Of a stretch of DNA of 32,064 nt, positions 1 through 27,330 are shown piece after piece (positions within the stretch are counted from its first letter, which is position 1; each line of letters opens with the position of its first letter). The position numbers were made by a program, and so were the translations under genes. This stretch comes from a virus (taxonomy: Duplodnaviria; Heunggongvirae; Uroviricota; Caudoviricetes): IMG/VR virus record IMGVR_UViG_2693429524_000019, positions 1-32,064 of that record; one strand, written 5' to 3'. The notes under the pieces were generated by a model. It ran no database searches. It saw only the letters and a program-made list of their open reading frames with translations, and was not told the origin of the DNA.

Positions 1-84
1 ATGGCGGGTTATTTGTCCTGGTTATTCCCCCGTTGTAAAATCTCTCCTAAACTTAACGGTACGGCACCACACTTCGGGGATGAA

Positions 85-276
85 ATGTTCGCGCTGGTAC
101 TTTTTGTTTGCTACCTGGATGGCGGTTGTGAAGATATTGTTGTGGATGTCTACAACACGGAACAGCAGTGTCTTCATTCTATGAGCGATCAACGGATCCG
201 CCAGGGCGGTTGTTTTCCGATTGAGGATTTTATAGATGGTTTCTGGCGACCTGCGCAGGAGTACGGTGATTTTTAA
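85..276 (+). CDS. yebW: small uncharacterized host protein, YebW-like (63 aa from the internal ATG; the ORF-track N-terminal extension from position 1 is probably not real)
   Basis: 63-aa product MFALVLFVCYLDGGCEDIVV...GDF; length and position convergent with pphA match the yebW-pphA neighbourhood of E. coli as I recall it; sequence identity not verified. Confidence 0.4.
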   Translation: MFALVLFVCYLDGGCEDIVVDVYNTEQQCLHSMSDQRIRQGGCFPIEDFIDGFWRPAQEYGDF

Positions 277-933
277 TTATTGCAATTGCACAAGAGTCAG
301 TTCGCCCCCAAAGACAGCACCGGTATCAATATAATGCAGGTTGCCAATATCCACGCGATGTCGCAACGGTGTATGACCAAACCAGAAATGATCAGCACCT
401 GTAATTCCCTGCCCTTTTGGGCGTTCACCTAATCGTGAGCGGCTCCACAAGACCTGATGCAAATCAACGTCCTTTTGCCATTCATAAACATCATCTGGAT
501 AATCGGCATGAGCAATAACATGTTTGCCGGTGCGGCTGTGTACTTCAAGAATAAAGGGCAAATGCTGACATTTTTCCAGCGCCGTTTTCGCTTGTTTCTG
601 TTGATTATCTGCCAGCGCAATAAACCAGTCGCCGCCATTCATCAACCACAAAGACATCTGCTGGGATGCCAGCGCATCCATCGCCATCTGTTCATGATTG
701 CCTCTTACCGCACGAACCCAATGTTGTTCCAGTAACTGCAGACAACGTAAACTTTGCGGCCCACGATCGATAACGTCTCCCACTGAGATAAGTAAATCTC
801 GCCACGGATCAAAACGACAATGCCATAATTTGCGGCGCAACTGCTCAAGACAACCGTGTATATCGCCAGAAAGCCAGATATGTCGCCATTGATGACCCGC
901 AATTCTCTGATAAACGGGCGCAGGCTGTTTCAT
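277..933 (-). CDS. pphA: serine/threonine protein phosphatase 1 (PrpA), calcineurin-like metallophosphatase
   Basis: 218-aa product from the second codon (ATG at 933; the track start at 936 is TTG); N-terminus MKQPAPVYQRIAGHQWRHIWLSGDIHG and GDxxDRG / GNHE metallophosphatase motifs match recalled PrpA. Confidence 0.8.
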   Translation of the reverse strand: MKQPAPVYQRIAGHQWRHIWLSGDIHGCLEQLRRKLWHCRFDPWRDLLISVGDVIDRGPQSLRCLQLLEQHWVRAVRGNHEQMAMDALASQQMSLWLMNGGDWFIALADNQQKQAKTALEKCQHLPFILEVHSRTGKHVIAHADYPDDVYEWQKDVDLHQVLWSRSRLGERPKGQGITGADHFWFGHTPLRHRVDIGNLHYIDTGAVFGGELTLVQLQ

Positions 934-1067
934 CAATATTTTCCTCCCGCGCTAAAGATCACATAATCTTAACAAGAATGTTAAAAAACGCTGGACTCAG
1001 ACAGTAGAGTGTGTGTTATGGTTGACTATAAAGTCAGCGAAGGAAATGCTTCTGGCTTTTAACAGAT

Positions 1068-1092
1068 AAAAAGAGACCGAACACGATTCCTG
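1068..1092 (-). ncRNA. sdsR: 3'-terminal fragment of sRNA SdsR (RyeB): distal terminator half plus U-tract; probable prophage attachment core
   Basis: minus strand reads CAGGAATCGTGTTCGGTCTCTTTTT, matching the recalled 3' end of SdsR; similarity decays immediately upstream (GACGAAAA versus recalled GACCGAATA); lies ~135 bp from the pphA start as expected for the sdsR locus. Confidence 0.45.
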
Positions 1093-1397
1093 TTTTCGTC
1101 AACAAACGACAAAATCCTTTAGAATTAATGTGTTAAATAAATTTATGCTCATCTTTTAATCCCTAACACATACCATTACATATTAATACATTCAATTAGT
1201 TACCATTTTTTTCGAGTTTTTTAGAGAAATTTTCGGGAATATTTCAGGTCAATCCATGCATACACAAGCAATTCCTGTATTGAATAATTCCGTAGCAATT
1301 ATGTAAAATCACCTTCGGCTGATTTTCATTCAAACTCGCGCTATCGAACGTCCATCAGCCAGCCGTGGCACGTTCTTGCATACGACGTGCTGCGGTT
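1093..1397. other. AT-rich non-coding prophage arm between att core and invertase gene (probable attP arm with integrase/IHF arm sites)
   Basis: ~300 bp, very AT-rich, no ORF above 20 codons, sits at the tail-fibre end of the prophage where lambdoid P-arms lie. Confidence 0.3.
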
Positions 1398-1987
1398 TCA
1401 TTTATCTCCGACCGGAAACTTCTTATACAAAGTCGATACGCCAACATCATAGATGATCTCCACATTCTGGCGATGAACTCCTGATGCAATTAGTCGCCCG
1501 GCCTGCGCCCATTGTTCTGATGAAAGTTTGGGACGGCGACCGCCAATTCGTCCCTGTGCGCGAGCAGCTTCCAGTCCAGCTTTTGTTCGTTCAACAATCA
1601 GTTCACGCTCCATTTCAGCCAGGGCACCCATGACATGAAAAAAGAAACGGCCATTGGGGTGCTGGTATCAATACTGTCAGTCAGGCTTCGGAAATTCACG
1701 CCACGCTGACGCAACTCTTCTATCAGCGTAACAAGATGCCGCATACTGCGCCCCAACCTGTCCAGCTTCCAGACAACCAGAGTGTCTCCTGCCGATAGTG
1801 TCCTGAGCAGTTTTTTAAGCCCCGGTCTGTCGGACTTAGTGCCACTGATTTTATCCTCAAAAACCCGCTCACATCCCGCGCAGTTCAGTGCATCACGTTG
1901 CAGATCGGTGTTCTGGTCATTTGTTGATACGCGTACATAGCCAATAAGTATGTTAAATCCCCCTGGTAAAAGCAGGAATGATGCCAT
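1398..1987 (-). pseudogene. pin: DNA invertase of the Pin/Gin/Hin serine recombinase family, disrupted
   Basis: two ORF fragments (1598..1987 and 1398..1631) together align to recalled Pin/Gin: ..IGYVRVSTNDQNTDLQR.. then ..MGALAEMERELIVERT..GRIGGRRPKL..; canonical start codon is ATA (the peptide reads ILIGYVRV); a one-base loss near 1648-1651 (ATGGCC where ATGGGCC is expected) shifts the frame between the catalytic and HTH domains. Confidence 0.8.
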
Positions 1988-2005
1988 TTGCTTGTTATTT
2001 CTGCA

Positions 2006-2031
2006 TTTTCATAAACGTTGGTTTGGGAGAA
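2006..2031. repeat. candidate invertase crossover site A (gix/pix-like), adjacent to pin
   Basis: TTTTCATAAACGTTGGTTTGGGAGAA resembles recalled gix/hix consensus (AAACC-NN-GGTTT core); shares core TTGGTTT with site B in inverted orientation. Confidence 0.4.
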
Positions 2032-2487
2032 GGTGCTCCAGCTATTGGCGTTCCGTTCTTCTGGCCGTCCGCTGCAATGCCAAATACTGTAATCGACAGC
2101 TGGTCCAGTATGGTGTTTTTGAAGTTCAACGGGGCGAAATTTTCTGCCTCTGATTACCCTGTGCTGGCAAAAGTGTTTCCTTCGCTGGTATTACCTGAAG
2201 CCCGCGGTGATTTCATTCGTATCTGGGATGATGGCCGTGGTGTTGATAGTGGCCGTGCGTTACTTTCCGCGCAATCAGACGATTTCAAAACGCACGAGCA
2301 TAAATTTTTAGGGCTAAATGGAAGTGGCAGTAATGTAGTGTTTGGCACCGTTTCGAATGCTTCTCCATTATATACCAGCGGCGTTAGTCAGCCGGGTGGA
2401 AGTGCTTTGCCCGCTTTTCAAAACCCAGGCGGTACTGAAACGCGTCCCCGTAACATCGCATTCAACTTTTTAGTAAGGGCTAAATAA
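2021..2487 (+). CDS. alternative tail-fibre C-terminal segment (Sv'), silent orientation, no own start
   Basis: reading frame continuous from crossover core; encodes GAPAIGVPFFWPSAAMPNTVIDSWSSMVFLKFNGAKF...GDFIRIWDDGRGVDSGRALLSAQ, a conserved tail-fibre C-terminus of the Mu S / P1 S / e14 StfE type. Confidence 0.6.
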
Positions 2488-3080
2488 TGAAACCTGTTTT
2501 TGATGAAAATGGGCTGGCTACAGTGCCGGGCGATATGCGTTGTTTTTATTATGATGCAGTAACGTATGAATATACGGGCTGGTCTGATGAATATATTAAT
2601 ACTGGCGTAAGTATGCCCGCCTGTTCCACTGGTATTGACCCTGGCGAATACATTCCGGGGAAAGTGGCAGTATTTACGGGTAAGGGATGGAGCCATGAAG
2701 AAGACCACCGCAATGAGACTGTTTACTCAATCGAAAATGGCGCAGCTGTTACAGTGGATTATATCGGTGCCATCAAAGACGGTTATGTCACGCTTTCACC
2801 GTTAACGCCATACGATAAATGGGATGGTGAGAAATGGGTGACCGATACTGAGGCACAGCATAGCGCTGCAGTAGACGCGGCAGAAGCACAGCGTCAGTCA
2901 CTGATTGATGCTGCAATGGCTTCCATCAGTCTGATTCAGCTGAAATTGCAGGCCGCACGTAAACTGACGCAGACAGAAACAACCCGACTTAACGCCGTGC
3001 TGGATTACATTGACGCGGTGACTGCAACAGATACCAGCACCGCGCCGGATGTCATCTTGCCTGAACTGCCGGAGGCGTAG
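2487..3080 (+). CDS. tail fibre assembly protein (U'/Tfa), silent orientation
   Basis: 197 aa; ATG overlaps the Sv' stop (TAATG); C-terminal ..LNAVLDYIDAVTATDTSTAPDVILPELP is a typical Tfa C-terminus; convergent with the other tfa. Confidence 0.7.
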   Translation: MKPVFDENGLATVPGDMRCFYYDAVTYEYTGWSDEYINTGVSMPACSTGIDPGEYIPGKVAVFTGKGWSHEEDHRNETVYSIENGAAVTVDYIGAIKDGYVTLSPLTPYDKWDGEKWVTDTEAQHSAAVDAAEAQRQSLIDAAMASISLIQLKLQAARKLTQTETTRLNAVLDYIDAVTATDTSTAPDVILPELPEA

Positions 3081-3489
3081 GCCATTCAATATCTGGAGCA
3101 CTGGAGGTATCAACCAGTTCCAGTGCGTCCAGATAATCCAGCCACAAATTATATTGCGCCAGTTCCTCACCTTTCAGACGACCAATAGCTGCTTTACCTG
3201 GCCATTGCCTGTTATTCATGTGCTCATTGGCAGTATCTATGCGCCGCTGACGCTCGTATTCTGCCATCTTTATCAGTTCTTCAGGTGCCAGTGGCGGAAT
3301 ATCACTCCATACGGGATAACCATCATCACCCGCAATCCTCATTTTTCCCTCCGGTGGCTTCTGAAATGCAACAAAAGTCTCTTCATCAACTTCCACGCCT
3401 TTTTCGGGCCACATCCCTGCCGCCTCATAGTCTGCCTGCATTGCTAATGGATAAAATGCGTTAGTTACTGCGTCGTATAAATATTTCAT
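3052..3489 (-). CDS. tail fibre assembly protein (U/Tfa), expressed orientation
   Basis: 145 aa, SD AGGAAG upstream, immediately follows tail-fibre gene; C-terminus ..NLWLDYLDALELVDTSSAPDIEWPTPP is paralogous to the U' C-terminus. Confidence 0.7.
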   Translation of the reverse strand: MKYLYDAVTNAFYPLAMQADYEAAGMWPEKGVEVDEETFVAFQKPPEGKMRIAGDDGYPVWSDIPPLAPEELIKMAEYERQRRIDTANEHMNNRQWPGKAAIGRLKGEELAQYNLWLDYLDALELVDTSSAPDIEWPTPPAVQAR

Positions 3490-3491
3490 TT

Positions 3492-4640
3492 TTATCTTCC
3501 TATTGCTATCCAGTTGGCACCAGCTCCTTTGACAGCCCCCTGACGCGATGACGCGAGATAAAAACCATAGTTATTTATCTTACTTGTCGAGAATGCCGGG
3601 CAGTCTTCTGCACTGGTTGGCGTATCGAAAGAACATGCGACGCGATAATCATCGGTAAAAGGTATCGGGAAATTAACAGCAGTTGGGTAGCCAGCAGAGC
3701 CTGAAATGTTCGTACCAAACTGCATGATGGTGCCGTCAGGAAATTTCACCCAGCCAGGACCTGATGTGAAATTAGCCATTGTCGGAACCTGATTAGCCCC
3801 ATTTCCCAGGTTTGCTGTTGCTGCTGAGCCAAGCCCTAAATTTGCTCGTGCGTCGGCAGCTGTGGTCGCGCCGGTTCCGCCCTGACTAAGCGCTAGAGCC
3901 ATTGGCGTTCCGATATTGTTAAGTACGCCCCATGCACCACTATCATTCACAAACAGCCGATAGTTATCGCTTTGTGAAGTAATGTATGTGTCAACTAAGC
4001 CTTGTACTAAACGATTGACGCCAAGGTTACTACGCGCTTCTGCCAGAGAAGTCCCGCCAGTTCCCCCCTTAGACAGAGGTACTGTGTTCTCCGTTGCCAC
4101 ATCTCCCAGACCAAGATTACTACGCGCGCTGGCAGCATCTTTTGCACCTGTACCGCCAGATGATAATTGCAGTGCAATAGTCCCTGCCTGGGGACTTATT
4201 GAATATGCCCCCCATCCATCATTCTGCACAAAAACATAAGATTTTTTGTTTGGTGACCAAATGCGTGTTTCGTTAGTGTCCTGATCACATCTTTCTAAAC
4301 CAAGATTTTCGAGAGCCGTTTTCACCGTGCCGTCCGATTTGATATCGCCAAACGGATTCTTGCGGCTCAGGTATTCAACAGCAAACCCCGATCCCAGCAA
4401 TTCAACAAAACCGGACAGATCACCATTATCAAGCACATCCCGTTGCGTTTTATCACTTACAAACTGGGCCAGAGCTGCAGCAATAAAGCTGGCCTGCCGA
4501 ATAACCTTATTGACTTGCGCACTGGATGCTTTACCTGCTGTAAATCCGGATAAAAGCGCAGGCAACGCTTCCCATTCCTCCTGCGACATAACATTGGCAT
4601 TTTTACCCGTTGCGAATGCTTTAAAGTCATTTTTTGCCAT
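3492..4640 (-). CDS. tail fibre protein (S): constant N-terminal part plus variable C-terminal part
   Basis: 382 aa from ATG at 4640 (TGATG coupling with upstream gene); three repeats of LSxGGTG..(A/S)xxARxNLGLG; last gene of the baseplate operon before the tfa. Confidence 0.75.
   Translation of the reverse strand: MAKNDFKAFATGKNANVMSQEEWEALPALLSGFTAGKASSAQVNKVIRQASFIAAALAQFVSDKTQRDVLDNGDLSGFVELLGSGFAVEYLSRKNPFGDIKSDGTVKTALENLGLERCDQDTNETRIWSPNKKSYVFVQNDGWGAYSISPQAGTIALQLSSGGTGAKDAASARSNLGLGDVATENTVPLSKGGTGGTSLAEARSNLGVNRLVQGLVDTYITSQSDNYRLFVNDSGAWGVLNNIGTPMALALSQGGTGATTAADARANLGLGSAATANLGNGANQVPTMANFTSGPGWVKFPDGTIMQFGTNISGSAGYPTAVNFPIPFTDDYRVACSFDTPTSAEDCPAFSTSKINNYGFYLASSRQGAVKGAGANWIAIGR
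4290..4316. repeat. candidate invertase crossover site B inside the tail-fibre gene
   Basis: plus strand TCTTTCTAAACCAAGATTTTCGAGAG; reverse complement carries the same TTGGTTT core as site A; encodes ..ENLGLER.. in S, frame-compatible with ..NVGLGEG.. at site A. Confidence 0.4.
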
Positions 4641-6516: not shown

Positions 6517-6869
6517 TACGCCTCCGATGTAACAGTCGTTATTCCATAAAGAGTGTCGATTTCAGCGGAAAACATGACACGTCGGGTCGTGGTATCCACC
6601 GTCGTATTGAAAGAGAGGATTGATTTAACGCCCCGCGTTTCGAGGATGCGCTTACGGATCGCCAGGTTGTAGGTTTCCGGCTTCTGCTTACCGAGTACGG
6701 ACTGGATCCACGGAGTCCCCTCGGTGGTGTCGAGAAACCATTGCCCATACCACAATTCGAATCGCGTTTTTACCGCCTGCGCCACGGCCTCCGGTGAGTT
6801 AATCAGCCAGGTGTCATCACCGCTGCCAAAGGTGTAATCGCCATCGGCGTCTTCACGTCTGTATCGCAT
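6516..6869 (-). CDS. baseplate protein, GPW / gp25-like (Mu gp46)
   Basis: 117 aa, coupled between V-like and J-like genes; size and position match the GPW/gp25 family. Confidence 0.6.
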   Translation of the reverse strand: MRYRREDADGDYTFGSGDDTWLINSPEAVAQAVKTRFELWYGQWFLDTTEGTPWIQSVLGKQKPETYNLAIRKRILETRGVKSILSFNTTVDTTTRRVMFSAEIDTLYGITTVTSEA

Positions 6870-7621
6870 CAGTTTACCCCATCGGTATTGCTTCCACCGC
6901 GCTGAACACCGCCATGAGTGTGCGTATCATCGATTGGCTTGCCGTTAGCCTTCACGCTACCCAAAAACTCAACAGCACCAGTGATTTTTGAAGCCACACC
7001 AGAAACAACAGCCCCCACCATGCCTCCCATCCAGGTTAACAGGCCATGAATGGTTACTTTCTCAGAAAAATCAGCCAGAGGGGCAACCACATCAAGGCCC
7101 CCCGGAGCGACAATTTTAATTTTCCTGGTATCAGGATTAAGCTCAAAATAGGTGCTGCCGTCATCACTACGCAACTGTGTGGCACTGGTATTAATACCGC
7201 TAATCTTCCTTGCCTGCGACTGGGGACCGACAATACAAAACGCATCCGATAAATCATGCATTCTGTCATCGACCGGCTCCTGTATCCCGCCACTCTGCCA
7301 CCAGAAATCAATACAACGATCGGCAAAAATCACCAAACATTCATCACCGGCTTTAACTGGAAACGTTAGCGTACAGCCTCCGCCGCGCGGGAATACCACT
7401 GGTACATCCACCAGCAGGGGTAATGTCGTCGACTGGTTGATTCCATTTGAGTCCGGCTCATAGCCTTTAATCGCAGGTTGAACAACCACTGTTACCGTGT
7501 CCGGATCAAATGACTGGACGATGCCGGGCATAGAAACACGCAGCGCCGACATGACAGAGCCAGCAAGTCTTACATCGGCCTGTTCTTTGCTACCAAGTTG
7601 AGCGCTTAAAGAAACTGGCAT
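6869..7621 (-). CDS. baseplate assembly protein V / central spike (Mu gp45 family)
   Basis: 250 aa, SD GGAGG 8 nt upstream; glycine-rich C-terminus; first gene after the moron terminator. Confidence 0.55.
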   Translation of the reverse strand: MPVSLSAQLGSKEQADVRLAGSVMSALRVSMPGIVQSFDPDTVTVVVQPAIKGYEPDSNGINQSTTLPLLVDVPVVFPRGGGCTLTFPVKAGDECLVIFADRCIDFWWQSGGIQEPVDDRMHDLSDAFCIVGPQSQARKISGINTSATQLRSDDGSTYFELNPDTRKIKIVAPGGLDVVAPLADFSEKVTIHGLLTWMGGMVGAVVSGVASKITGAVEFLGSVKANGKPIDDTHTHGGVQRGGSNTDGVN

Positions 7622-7639
7622 TCATATGCCTCCAGAAAG

Positions 7640-7665
7640 CAAAAAACCCACTCGAAGGCGGGTTT
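7640..7665 (-). terminator. intrinsic terminator downstream of the moron genes
   Basis: minus strand AACCCGCCTTCGAGTGGGTT hairpin (7-bp stem, one GU) followed by TTTTGCTTTC. Confidence 0.6.
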
Positions 7666-7729
7666 TATGTAGCTAGTTTTCTTTCCATGGTGATAGAAGC
7701 AATTACCGTGGAAAGTTAATTTAGCGAAC

Positions 7730-8071
7730 TCATTTCTTATTTTCAGATAGCACCAATCTACATTCTTCTTTTTTTAGAATCGTAAGAGATTGGCCACTAT
7801 CGGAAAAAGAATAACCGCACTCGGAAGCGAGTTGACGCAGAGCTATTTCACCATAACTATCACCATGTTCTTTCATTAACTCATCACCAAAATCCGCCTC
7901 ACGACCATTAGATACAGCGTCCATAGCCGCATTAGAAACAGCCCTATTTGTGATCTCTCTCTTGATGATGTAGTTATCAGCCAGTGAGGTGTGCAGTCCA
8001 AAAAAATCATTCAGCGTTCCACCTACACAAATTGTTGGAGTCAACACTGCGAGAAGGAATATTTTCTTCAT
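7730..8071 (-). CDS. secreted (Sec signal peptide) protein of unknown function, moron
   Basis: 113 aa, N-terminus MKKIFLLAVLTPTICVGG is signal-peptide-like; lies in an AT-rich block unlike flanking phage genes. Confidence 0.5.
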   Translation of the reverse strand: MKKIFLLAVLTPTICVGGTLNDFFGLHTSLADNYIIKREITNRAVSNAAMDAVSNGREADFGDELMKEHGDSYGEIALRQLASECGYSFSDSGQSLTILKKEECRLVLSENKK

Positions 8072-8106
8072 TACAAATGTCTCTTATAGCTGATTTCTTA
8101 AAAAAA

Positions 8107-8349
8107 TTAATTACAGTACGTTGTGCCAGTATTGGTCGTCTGGCATTCACGATGTACTGCACTCCCATTAATCGTTCCTGTGGTATACGTAGTACCTGTA
8201 TTGGTTGTATAAGATTCTGTTTTAACTGTAGAACCACTACTGTCTGTACCAGTACAGTAAGTTGTTCCTGTATTTGAAGTGGTGCATGTTACCGCAGCCA
8301 CAGAAGACAAAGTCACAAAATATACCAGTAATAAGATCCATTTAAGCAT
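8107..8349 (-). CDS. small secreted Thr/Gly-rich cysteine-containing repeat protein, moron
   Basis: 80 aa from ATG at 8349 (overlaps the stop of the upstream baseplate gene); signal peptide MLKWILLLVYFVTLSSVAA; mature part has TNTGTTY(C/T) repeated three to four times; AT-rich codon usage. Confidence 0.5.
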   Translation of the reverse strand: MLKWILLLVYFVTLSSVAAVTCTTSNTGTTYCTGTDSSGSTVKTESYTTNTGTTYTTGTINGSAVHRECQTTNTGTTYCN

Positions 8350-9382
8350 TTGGTACCCCACTTATTTTCGCTATCGTATCAGGAGTGAGTAAACTTTTAC
8401 TCCCTTTAGCCAGGCAAAGCAGGTCCATATACCACGCCTGCCCTCGGGTGTCGCCAGTATAATCAATGCTGCCCACAATGTAATCACCGTCAGTATTAAT
8501 ACTGGCAGGCTGTGACATGCCTGGCAGACCGTTAACGTAGAGATTACCGTCGCTTTCAGACTCACCCAGTCGTGCTGGCGATTTCGCTACCTGGTCATTA
8601 CTCAAAGAGGCACGGTATACAGATGCCTGATCCAGACGAATAAGCCCACCGAGCTTAATATTTGGATTAATCAGACATCTGACATTTACGCCCGCTCCCA
8701 TTGTCTGCTGTGGCATACCGATAAGCCCGGTGTTAGCATTCAACACCGTAGCAACACCAATATATTTATCTTCAGGAACAATATTTACCAGATTATTTTC
8801 ATACCACCAGTTAGCTTTACACTGCCCTGCGATATGATTCATCAACCTTGATGTGTTTTGATAAACAACGCGACCCCGGGGAAATACCGTTTCCGGCATG
8901 TCAGGAACTGCACCGGATTCGATTCCATATGGTTCGAATGATTTCATACCCAGACTGAAAAGATCGCTGTACTTCCAGCCAGCTGCCACTGTGGTTTTCA
9001 CACTTGCGTTCAGGTGGCCTTCCCAGCTGTCAATACACTGCAACATGATCCAACTGTCTGTGGCATTATCTTTACCAGTGACAGTAAAACGGATATCTCC
9101 ATTGAATATCATACCAACGTTTTCATCAGGATAATTACCTGCTGCATCCGGTTGCCCCTTGTATCCGGCAATAACCTGTATACGCGAAAACTCCTTCTGC
9201 ATAATCCGGTTCTGAGTGGTAGGAGACAGGTTATAAACCTTAAAATTTCCAACAAATCCATTAAATATGGTCGCAGGCATTTTCTGAATATTGAAAGTGA
9301 CTTTAAGCTCAGAAATTTTTATCCCGTCTCCCTTATCATCAACAAGCAATAATTCAAAGTGACGCATCCAGTTTTTCGACAT
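8342..9382 (-). CDS. baseplate hub / tail protein (Mu gp44 / P-like)
   Basis: 346 aa, SD GGAG upstream, position after two small tail genes downstream of the tape measure. Confidence 0.5.
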   Translation of the reverse strand: MSKNWMRHFELLLVDDKGDGIKISELKVTFNIQKMPATIFNGFVGNFKVYNLSPTTQNRIMQKEFSRIQVIAGYKGQPDAAGNYPDENVGMIFNGDIRFTVTGKDNATDSWIMLQCIDSWEGHLNASVKTTVAAGWKYSDLFSLGMKSFEPYGIESGAVPDMPETVFPRGRVVYQNTSRLMNHIAGQCKANWWYENNLVNIVPEDKYIGVATVLNANTGLIGMPQQTMGAGVNVRCLINPNIKLGGLIRLDQASVYRASLSNDQVAKSPARLGESESDGNLYVNGLPGMSQPASINTDGDYIVGSIDYTGDTRGQAWYMDLLCLAKGSKSLLTPDTIAKISGVPNA

Positions 9383-24830: not shown

Positions 24831-25190
24831 TTACTCCTTATGGGCACCGAACTTGTTACCGATGACCCTCATTGCCGCACCACGAATAGCATCAACACCA
24901 ATCAGCCCCACCCCACCACCAATGGCAACAGAAAGTGATTTAGGCCATCCGACATACTCAAGCGCGGATGCAAAGGTCAGCGTCAGGGCACCACAGAGCA
25001 AAATCTCAAGCGTTTTTCGTTTCCAGCCCCCACCACCGCCAAAATAGGCGATGCGCAAACCAGCCATAACGATCGACATAATCACTGCACCCAGCGGTGT
25101 GTCTCCACGCCACCAGCTCTGAAACAACTCCAGCCAGTCCGGCCAGGTATTTGGGTTATGAGGCATTTCATCATCTCTCACCTCGCACAT
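24831..25190 (-). CDS. holin, three predicted transmembrane helices (class I), possible dual start
   Basis: ATG at 25190 and second ATG at 25166 eight codons later; three hydrophobic segments; immediately upstream of the endolysin. Confidence 0.6.
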   Translation of the reverse strand: MCEVRDDEMPHNPNTWPDWLELFQSWWRGDTPLGAVIMSIVMAGLRIAYFGGGGGWKRKTLEILLCGALTLTFASALEYVGWPKSLSVAIGGGVGLIGVDAIRGAAMRVIGNKFGAHKE

Positions 25191-26488: not shown

Positions 26489-27043
26489 TCAACAGACGGT
26501 TTTTGAATCCCCGGAAGAGAATGCATCACGCATCGGCAGATAGAGCATAAACTCTGCCATTTTCAACCACGCATCTATGCGATTACGGCACGTGGCGTAA
26601 CACCACTCAGGGTGTGCGTCATTCAGCAATTCAGCCATTTTTCGCTTAGTCATCCCCCTCCCTTCATATCGTTGCCGGAGGATACAAATCAATCCTGGGT
26701 GTTCTGCCAGCACTTCACTAATCACACGATCAATGCATAACGCCTCTGCATCAGTACAATGCACCAGCCAGCTTTTTTGCTTGCCGTTGATCATATCCCG
26801 CAAAAAAGCCTCAAGTTCAGGTTTGTCCAGCCCTGCTTTTTTCATCCTCCGGAGCGCCTCGTTAATTGCCGTTTTTGTCAGCTTTTTAGAGGTCAGCAAC
26901 TGGTTAAACATATTTCCCGTCTTACCGCCGCCAATATACGACCAGCGCCCCCACATGCGCAGTTTTCCCTGAATCCAGACACTTTCCAGCGTGGTGAGAC
27001 GAAGGTGTTCCCCGCTTTTGCCTGTATTTGTTGGGTAAATCAT
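26489..27043 (-). CDS. late-gene antitermination protein Q-like
   Basis: 184 aa from ATG at 27043 (ATGA overlap with the ybcO-like stop); ..KLRMWGRWSYIGGG.. and the position upstream of the lysis genes fit the Q family; family assignment from memory only. Confidence 0.55.
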   Translation of the reverse strand: MIYPTNTGKSGEHLRLTTLESVWIQGKLRMWGRWSYIGGGKTGNMFNQLLTSKKLTKTAINEALRRMKKAGLDKPELEAFLRDMINGKQKSWLVHCTDAEALCIDRVISEVLAEHPGLICILRQRYEGRGMTKRKMAELLNDAHPEWCYATCRNRIDAWLKMAEFMLYLPMRDAFSSGDSKTVC

Positions 27044-27330
27044 AAATAACCTTCCTTTCTCCAGATTTCTTGCGTACGAAAAACACCTTCTGCATGCATC
27101 AGGCGTAATTCTTCTTTGGTGTAATCGCTGGTTTTTACCCGCCCGTCGATTAAATCGTGGCATGAGCTGCAGGCAATCGCTGCCTGCATATCGTGTGGTT
27201 TTGTCGCTGTTCCGCACGTCCCCGCCAGCCTGTAATGCGCCAGCACAGATGTTTCGGGATTGTGATTGCAGTAGCCAAGAATTCTGACGGTGCACATCTG
27301 CCCCCGCGCCGCTTTACGTAAATCCACCAT
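27040..27330 (-). CDS. YbcO-like protein (DUF1364, putative nuclease)
   Basis: 96 aa MVDLRKAARGQMCTVRILGYCNHNPETSVLAHYRLAGTCGTATKP..CSSCHDLIDG resembles recalled YbcO Cys pattern. Confidence 0.6.
   Translation of the reverse strand: MVDLRKAARGQMCTVRILGYCNHNPETSVLAHYRLAGTCGTATKPHDMQAAIACSSCHDLIDGRVKTSDYTKEELRLMHAEGVFRTQEIWRKEGYL

Follow-up and report, generated by a model that had tools for sequence, protein, structure and literature searches.

The window analysed here is the whole 32,064-nucleotide (nt) stretch of DNA of a tailed phage (IMG/VR record IMGVR_UViG_2693429524_000019), and all coordinates refer to it. Between the baseplate hub gene and the baseplate central spike gene of this phage, a prophage of Escherichia coli, lies a block with two small genes, open reading frames (ORFs) A and B. 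On balance we favor the view that a conserved promoter-terminator socket in the baseplate operon of a temperate myophage is filled here by a moron cassette. The hub, both ORFs, the terminator and the spike gene are all on the minus strand. In the direction of transcription the elements are:

8342 to 9382, minus strand: baseplate hub gene, 346 amino acids (aa); PF22759 E217_GP41 with an expectation value (E) of 1.4e-7, phrog_196 baseplate hub with E = 1.2e-79
8456 to 8484, minus strand: putative sigma-70-like promoter in the hub coding sequence; -35 ATTACA (8484-8479), 17-nt spacer, -10 TATACT (8461-8456)
8107 to 8349, minus strand: ORF A, 80-aa precursor; signal peptide residues 1-19 (8293-8349), predicted cleavage after SVAA
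7730 to 8071, minus strand: ORF B, 113-aa precursor; signal peptide about residues 1-18 (8018-8071), predicted cleavage after VGG
7681 to 7715, minus strand: extra hairpin of 14 pairs between the ORF B stop and the terminator
7637 to 7666, minus strand: intrinsic terminator, stem AAAACCCGC-CTTCGA-GTGGGTTTT plus T-run; hairpin of 9 pairs at 7666-7643; right border of the slot
7629 to 7633, minus strand: spike-gene Shine-Dalgarno sequence GGAGG, read from the sequence; the terminator T-run immediately precedes it
6869 to 7621, minus strand: baseplate central spike gene, 250 aa; PF18352 N-terminal spike domain with E = 1.5e-44, GpV Apex motif

Hub and spike are 720 bp apart, and ORF A, ORF B, the 14-pair hairpin, the terminator and the spike GGAGG follow one another in this gap. 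The G+C content (GC) was 0.37 to 0.45 in the block and about 0.50 on both sides; for the slot as a whole it was 0.394 compared with 0.482 in the flanks. ORF A and the hub gene share 8 nt, which include the ATG of the former and the stop codon of the latter, and 35 nt separate ORF A from ORF B. A first-pass annotation made from the letters alone had described an AT-rich block of about 720 bp with genes for two secreted proteins, a Thr/Gly-rich peptide and a 113-aa protein, with a hairpin and then an intrinsic terminator just ahead of the Shine-Dalgarno sequence of the spike gene. This layout was borne out. Because of the overlap of ORF A with the hub stop the block begins at 8349 and not at 8341, and the terminator hairpin was placed at 7666-7643, a small correction of coordinates. 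In 7300-8700 of the window no Rfam family reached its gathering score. Searches of 50,697 phage records gave no match, neither with the block in megablast nor with ORF A or ORF B in tblastn, while the spike protein and a further protein family of this slot, family C (see below), do turn up in these records.

The junction was compared across related tail modules. We fetched 80 loci, one genome per species, with an alignment of spike proteins as the query and located hub and spike in each; the comparison set comprised 83 tail modules. The slot was empty in 23 of them, where hub and spike overlap or are separated by no more than 57 nt; among these are loci of Arsenophonus, Achromobacter, Ralstonia and some Erwinia. 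Because these 23 modules have nothing between hub and spike, we concluded from the sequence comparison that the block is inserted accessory DNA. The slot was filled in about 60 of the 83 loci with 318 to 2817 bp of cargo, and in 60/60 filled slots GC was below that of the flanks with a mean gap of 9.5 points. By this comparative evidence the hub-spike junction is a hotspot, or standard cargo slot, of the tail family. Thus the location, which the first-pass annotation had regarded as unusual, is not odd.

The exchange of cargo could be followed at close range in Escherichia coli. Of 5426 complete E. coli genomes, 5 had the whole cassette (at least 80% of the query covered). A further 47 genomes matched, and in most of these the match was limited to the flanks, with 97-99% identity. 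In the one such locus that was opened (L002) the flanks are 98% identical and the slot holds a 111-aa exported protein of family C and a DUF4282 membrane protein; feature names suggest the same pair in most of the remaining flank-only genomes. The exchanged segment is the following:

7665 to 8402, minus strand: segment replaced in other E. coli prophages; identity stops at 8403 and resumes at 7664

The exchange thus takes in the last 20 or so codons of the hub gene, which are swapped along with the cassette, and ends at the 5' edge of the terminator. A comparison with related prophages for signs of insertion had been proposed in the first-pass annotation; the empty slots and the different cassette in this near-identical prophage both answer it in the affirmative.

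ORFs were called in all filled slots and then clustered. The predicted cargo ORFs between hub and spike fell into at least 40 sequence clusters, and their arrangement was ordered. In 49 of 60 loci the first cargo gene began between -8 and +15 nt relative to the hub stop. This first gene almost always encodes a small exported protein, which belongs to family C in 49 loci and to family A where C is absent. Family C is phrog_3443 (E = 1e-48 to 1e-52; listed as 'unknown function'), with about 110 aa and the motif QCG...ING...SQK..FLK. Where family B is present, it always comes last, ahead of the terminator. It is preceded by A in the window and in the Trabulsiella-type, Pluralibacter and Cronobacter loci, and by family C in loci from Pantoea, Rahnella and Raoultella and in other loci of E. 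coli; A occurs without B in Yokenella (L005) and in L007. All close A-family contexts examined and 10 of 10 B-family contexts are the hub-spike slot. Among the other cargo, not that of the window itself, we found PD-Lambda-1 in two slots (L023 and L028, E = 1e-72), a Doc-like toxin beside a Phd-like gene in two more (L037 and L040), DUF4282 membrane proteins, and in Enterobacter slots a secreted protein with an oligonucleotide/oligosaccharide-binding (OB) fold that matches phrog_8545 'superinfection exclusion Sie-like' (E = 2.7e-15).

Three further observations concern the cargo of other slots. A two-gene cargo recurs in 8-10 slots (L007 5225-6366; also L011, L022, L043, L062, L077, L017 and L027), with a partner protein of 243-260 aa first and a HEPN-like protein (about 125 aa, motif RNAISRAYYALYHE) second. 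Neither PADLOC nor Pfam gave a match for the pair, which is a candidate for an uncharacterised defence pair. Fossils of family C were seen inside slots with other cargo (L094 2122-2202, L095 1652-1732, also L026 and L077), one of them 28 aa long and 75% identical to the C-terminus of family C; judged by their sequence they are traces of earlier cassette replacement. In L017 (2831-3697) and L080 (3651-4541) the first gene encodes a lipoprotein (about 290 aa, lipobox VAGC or VTGC), the C-terminal 90 residues of which are a family-C domain (phrog_3443, E = 3e-35), i.e. a membrane-anchored version of the first gene.

The left border of the socket is the promoter-like element within the hub gene. 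A consensus scan of the region returned one promoter-like site, ATTACA-17-TATACT at 8484-8456, with a predicted transcription start near 8449. A sigma-70 weight matrix gave a score of 8.26 for the 150 nt that precede the first cargo gene, compared with 4.84 for control windows in neighbouring tail genes (p = 5e-20). Across the loci the best site was always on the same hub codons, DG[VD]YIV..I.YTGDTR. Cargo-bearing loci scored 8.24 and empty-slot loci 4.09 in the position weight matrix (p = 5e-10), and most of the latter have a residue other than Thr in 'YTG'. The codon of this Thr supplies the invariant final T of the -10 hexamer. It was ACT in 49 of the 51 cargo-bearing loci that have Thr there, while the share of ACT among the Thr codons of these genes as a whole is 19.6%. 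At the Thr three codons downstream all four codons are in use (10, 14, 11 and 19 times), and the neighbouring fourfold-degenerate sites around the -10 codon are scrambled. Over 42 aligned codon positions the ACT Thr was the sole strongly constrained codon among those with three- to sixfold degeneracy. The same promoter-like element was found in 11 further loci, including three phage genome records (L089-L091: vB_EcoM-689R2, SEN34 and a Klebsiella phage). We regard the near-fixation of ACT at the -10 Thr against the background of 19.6% as decisive, and we infer from it that the hub-embedded element is probably a functional promoter held by synonymous constraint.

Two degraded prophages bear on the extent of the unit. 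In E. coli VL7S7 (L003 6001-6767) and O121 201805972 (L004) the hub is reduced to a short 3' fragment that lies beside a copy of IS911. The similarity to the window starts at 8485 in L003, 1 nt upstream of the -35 hexamer, and about 11 nt further upstream in L004. A and B are both intact in L003; in L004 ORF A is kept and B is cut by IS600. The cargo unit may therefore outlive the phage.

The right border is the terminator. A scan of the region found 4 terminator-like sites with 1.2 expected, and the predicted RNA fold of 7622-7735 had a free energy of -29.4 kcal/mol (z = -2.6). Every cargo-bearing slot is closed by a terminator hairpin with T-run, of the type AACCCGC-loop-GCGGGTT, at a distance of 15-23 nt from the spike ATG and with GGAG in between. 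In 44 of 44 distinct stem variants all stem pairs are standard or wobble, and some variants carry compensatory changes, e.g. CCTGC/GCAGG and GCCGC/GCGGC. Because every cargo type shares this terminator and the breakpoint of the cassette swap falls at its 5' edge, we concluded from the alignments that it is a backbone element common to all cargo types and not a property of the A-B cassette. The extra 14-pair hairpin accompanies the E. coli cassette and is absent 3' of the B homolog of Pantoea. Five 'empty' slots of 38-57 bp still hold the terminator (L069, L086, L075, L078 and L081).

These elements suggest how the unit would work. The host tail modules would be those of temperate myophages of Enterobacterales with a hub of the E217/Pam3 type and a spike of the gp138 type. 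The proposed socket has three fixed parts: the promoter in the 3' end of the hub gene, a first gene at the hub stop, and a terminator before the ribosome-binding site of the spike gene. In the lysogen, host RNA polymerase would start near 8449, transcribe A and B and stop at 7643 before the spike gene, so that the cargo would be produced in the absence of tail proteins. In the lytic cycle, transcripts of the late operon would read through the terminator, probably after being made terminator-resistant by a Q-like protein, and ORF A would also be translated by coupling to the hub gene. The window contains a candidate for such a protein, which had a weak match to PF06530 Phage_antitermQ (E = 1.3e-5, below the curated cut-off):

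26489 to 27295, minus strand: candidate late-gene antiterminator (Q-like), upstream of the holin gene; PF06576 DUF1133 with E = 1.3e-107
24831 to 25190: holin, PF05106

Several observations weigh against the view that the block fills a promoter-terminator socket and acts in the lysogen. The promoter-like element of the window matches the consensus at 4 of 6 positions only in the -35 and at 5 of 6 in the -10 hexamer. As it lies in a protein motif that is itself conserved, the amino-acid sequence accounts for some of its conservation. The terminator is found in a few empty slots that have no hub-embedded promoter; thus it may have a second role, e.g. in setting the ratio of upstream to downstream tail proteins. 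In these slots it is either a remnant of lost cargo or serves such a second purpose in the late operon. The restriction of the cargo to one slot may reflect homologous recombination between related phages and nothing else. Given that ORF A begins on the hub stop, with ORF B just 35 nt behind it, both proteins would in any case appear late in infection; this would agree with a role in the lytic cycle of the phage itself as well. Lastly, no link of A or B to a characterised Sie, Spackle, Cor or Llp family emerged from Pfam, NCBIfam, PADLOC, annotated PHROG families, PDB or viral folds.

Mature ORF A has 61 aa, of which 23 are Thr (38%) and 4 are invariant Cys. It contains three copies of TxNTGTTY; copies 1 and 3 are bracketed by the Cys pairs C22-C32 and C69-C79, each with partners ten residues apart. 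Homologs with 55-60% identity are present in Yokenella, Trabulsiella, Hafnia, Pluralibacter and Cronobacter. They retain the length of 80 aa, the hydrophobic N-terminus, a small-x-small (AxA-type) cleavage site and the 4 invariant Cys. AlphaFold2 predicted a six-strand beta-meander with a predicted local distance difference test (pLDDT) score of about 88 for the mature part. ORF B matches phrog_13007 over its full length (E = 1.5e-38), a family listed as 'unknown function'. Its 56 relatives, all from Enterobacterales, have two invariant Cys (C85 and C104) and signal peptides that diverge in sequence yet look functional in every relative. In both families the n-region, the h-region and small residues at -3/-1 are kept although the signal-peptide sequence diverges. 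AlphaFold2 predicted a small helical domain with four main helices for ORF B (pLDDT 87.8, about 97 in the core). As the homologs preserve length, cleavage site and Cys of ORF A as well as signal peptide and Cys of ORF B, their conservation identifies both as real genes and not chance ORFs. An assignment of ORF B as a lipoprotein was rejected: P-T-I before Cys15 does not fit a lipobox, and Cys15 is not conserved. Sigma-70 scoring of sites in the 35-nt spacer yielded no convincing separate promoter for ORF B. Both proteins would be exported by Sec, cleaved by signal peptidase I and probably held by disulfides in the periplasm, which the invariant Cys pairs of A and B fit.

ORF A is overlooked in several genomes. 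PGAP leaves it unannotated in the E. coli RefSeq genomes that carry it, and no PHROG family matched it. The gene callers miss the Pluralibacter homolog, an 80-aa protein of 57.5% identity that tblastn finds. Sites at which ORF A is unannotated or missed are 8107-8349 of the window, 6252-6494 of L001 and 3352-3591 of L103/L104. Among 1.84 billion proteins the family amounts to about 50 small exported peptides (P0062-P0111). Each member of this wider family carries three copies of its own 9-residue motif, e.g. TNSFGQTYC, TDSWGTTRC or ETPWGTxxC, with copies 1 and 3 bracketed by Cys. The repetition of a member-specific motif suggests that the repeats evolve in concert within each protein. The profile of the family also matches RCC1-type repeat proteins, and one distant member has a non-phage chromosomal context (L096 6001-6258).

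Relatives of known function were sought with all three families. Pfam, NCBIfam and PADLOC gave no match for A, B or C. Profile searches of solved structures in the PDB returned noise only (E >= 0.16), and fold searches with the predicted structures of A and B had no meaningful match in the PDB or among viral structures. In profile-profile comparisons the alignment of A, B and C with each other was confined to the signal peptides, by which we take them to be three separate families. The profile and structure searches that the first-pass annotation had called for thus produced confident folds and no characterised relative. Its statement that neither protein can be assigned to a known family needs to be qualified: B belongs to phrog_13007 and A to the family of about 50 peptides, while a characterised relative is indeed missing for both. 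Literature searches on this slot, on DUF4282 in phages and on periplasmic exclusion proteins near baseplate genes yielded nothing specific, and no paper describing the hub-spike slot or families A, B and C was found.

As to function, A and B may protect the cell envelope against incoming phages, by superinfection exclusion or by blocking tail-tip penetration or the receptor. We put this forward tentatively, as the likeliest single role. The roles named in the first-pass annotation, superinfection exclusion, receptor masking and lysogenic conversion, are all plausible candidates. It is favored by the predicted location in the envelope, the independent transcription unit and the defence-type slot-mates. 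In a bolder version, which we consider unlikely, the socket would be devoted to expressing periplasmic anti-entry proteins of a new class that comprises families A, B and C. These would bind and neutralise the tail tip of related myophages on its way across the periplasm, with the spike or the transglycosylase-bearing tape-measure protein as the target. Spackle-like exclusion would then have arisen independently in three unrelated folds, driven from a hub-encoded promoter.

Alternatively, A and B might serve the lytic cycle of their own phage as late periplasmic proteins that mask receptor or envelope to save progeny or that tune envelope breakdown. A precedent is the Llp lipoprotein of T5, which keeps progeny from being wasted on debris or already infected cells. 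The start of ORF A on the hub stop and the coupling of the first gene to the hub in 49 of 60 loci point in this direction. In addition, an exported A or C protein comes first in nearly every filled slot, which looks more like a conserved function than random cargo, and families A and C, which open the slots, were found only with this tail module. On the other hand, the 23 related phages without any gene here argue that the function is dispensable. The promoter-like element under synonymous constraint and the terminator point to expression independent of late transcription, and tail-less degraded prophages keep A and B (L003) or A (L004). We therefore regard a lytic-cycle role as doubtful. The layout of promoter, cargo and terminator, as in the morons lambda bor and lom, would also suit lysogenic-conversion factors unrelated to phages, with a part in fitness, stress or serum resistance, adhesion or immunity to envelope toxins of competitors. 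A and B are small, exported and probably disulfide-bearing like many periplasmic immunity and inhibitor proteins, and the distant A-family member of L096 lies outside a phage context. Yet the identifiable cargo of other slots is anti-phage or toxin-antitoxin and not virulence-related, and family, PDB and fold searches gave no similarity of A or B to known virulence or immunity families, which renders conversion factors quite improbable.

Mature A, with 61 aa, an abundance of Gly, Ser and Thr and probable disulfides to lock it, calls to mind an antimicrobial or toxic peptide, with B as its protective partner in a pair resembling a bacteriocin and its immunity protein. The pairing of A with B in four diverged lineages (window, Trabulsiella-type, Pluralibacter and Cronobacter) is in line with this idea. 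However, A occurs without B, B occurs with family C in place of A, a Sec signal peptide would take A only as far as the periplasm of the producer, and export or processing genes are absent. Such a pair is thus very improbable. The proposal that A and B are conserved structural or assembly components of the baseplate has only the position between baseplate genes and the common orientation in its favor, and we give it hardly any credence. It is contradicted by the export signals, as cleavable Sec signal peptides are incompatible with tail assembly in the cytoplasm, and by the absence of the genes from 23 related tail modules where hub and spike overlap or nearly touch. Moreover, unrelated genes replace A and B in near-identical E. 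coli prophages.

Our preferred reading of the block as a moron cassette in a fixed socket was then set against known systems. The criteria for morons have been restated (PMC5567305), and the hub-spike unit agrees with those on composition, polymorphism and terminator. By its sequence it probably also agrees with the one on the promoter. The first-pass annotation had spoken of classic moron architecture. The AT-rich composition, the terminator, the polymorphic insertion and the promoter-like element in the hub uphold this. What has to be amended is that the terminator belongs to the backbone and that ORF A, as it starts on the hub stop codon, is also embedded in the late operon and not free-standing. 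Morons were defined by Juhala, Hendrix and colleagues in lambdoid phages (lambda bor and lom, gene 15 of HK97), and membrane or exported products are typical of them. The hub-spike unit shares with these their patchy presence, the place in a late or tail operon, the deviant composition, the downstream intrinsic terminator and a putative promoter of its own. Unlike in lambdoid morons, this promoter lies in the coding sequence of the preceding structural gene and not in an intergenic spacer, promoter and terminator are a fixed backbone between which the cargo is exchanged, and translation of the first cargo gene would be tied to that of the structural gene.

Morons and accessory hotspots as a general phenomenon are established. 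Rousset and colleagues are said to have described, in 2022, prophage hotspots of anti-phage systems in P2-like phages and P4-like satellites. There as here highly variable cargo occupies a fixed site between conserved phage genes; in the present tail family it includes the known defence system PD-Lambda-1 and toxin-antitoxin-like pairs. In contrast to those hotspots, the slot belongs to a different phage family and position, the hub-spike junction of an E217/Pam3-type baseplate, it nearly always opens with a small exported protein, and the cargo of the window itself has no recognised defence domain. Exclusion proteins that act at the envelope are Spackle of T4, Llp of T5, Cor of phi80 and N15, and lactococcal Sie2009. 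A and B resemble them in being small, phage-encoded and equipped with a predicted signal peptide, and a slot-mate in Enterobacter matches the 'Sie-like' PHROG; they differ in that neither has sequence or fold similarity to any of them.

The hub-spike junction holds much accessory cargo in prophages of E. coli, Salmonella, Klebsiella, Pantoea, Yersinia, Photorhabdus and other Enterobacterales. It is thus a natural site to search for new anti-phage or envelope-acting genes, among which the HEPN-like pair stands out. With a putative promoter kept by a single synonymous codon choice, the hub gene is a clean case of regulatory information written over coding sequence. Families A, B and C belong exclusively to this tail module; should they prevent phages from entering the cell, they would be of consequence for prophage-mediated resistance and the choice of therapeutic phages. 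ORF A also marks an annotation gap, as standard annotation misses it in several genomes.

Finally, the tail-fibre end of the window (1-3500) has overlapping ORFs on both strands, e.g. 2487-3080 on the plus and 3052-3489 on the minus strand. In the E. coli locus L002 the tail-fibre and assembly genes are opposed and lie beside a pinE recombinase gene. Taken together these arrangements suggest that the tail-fibre end of the window is an invertible host-range segment.

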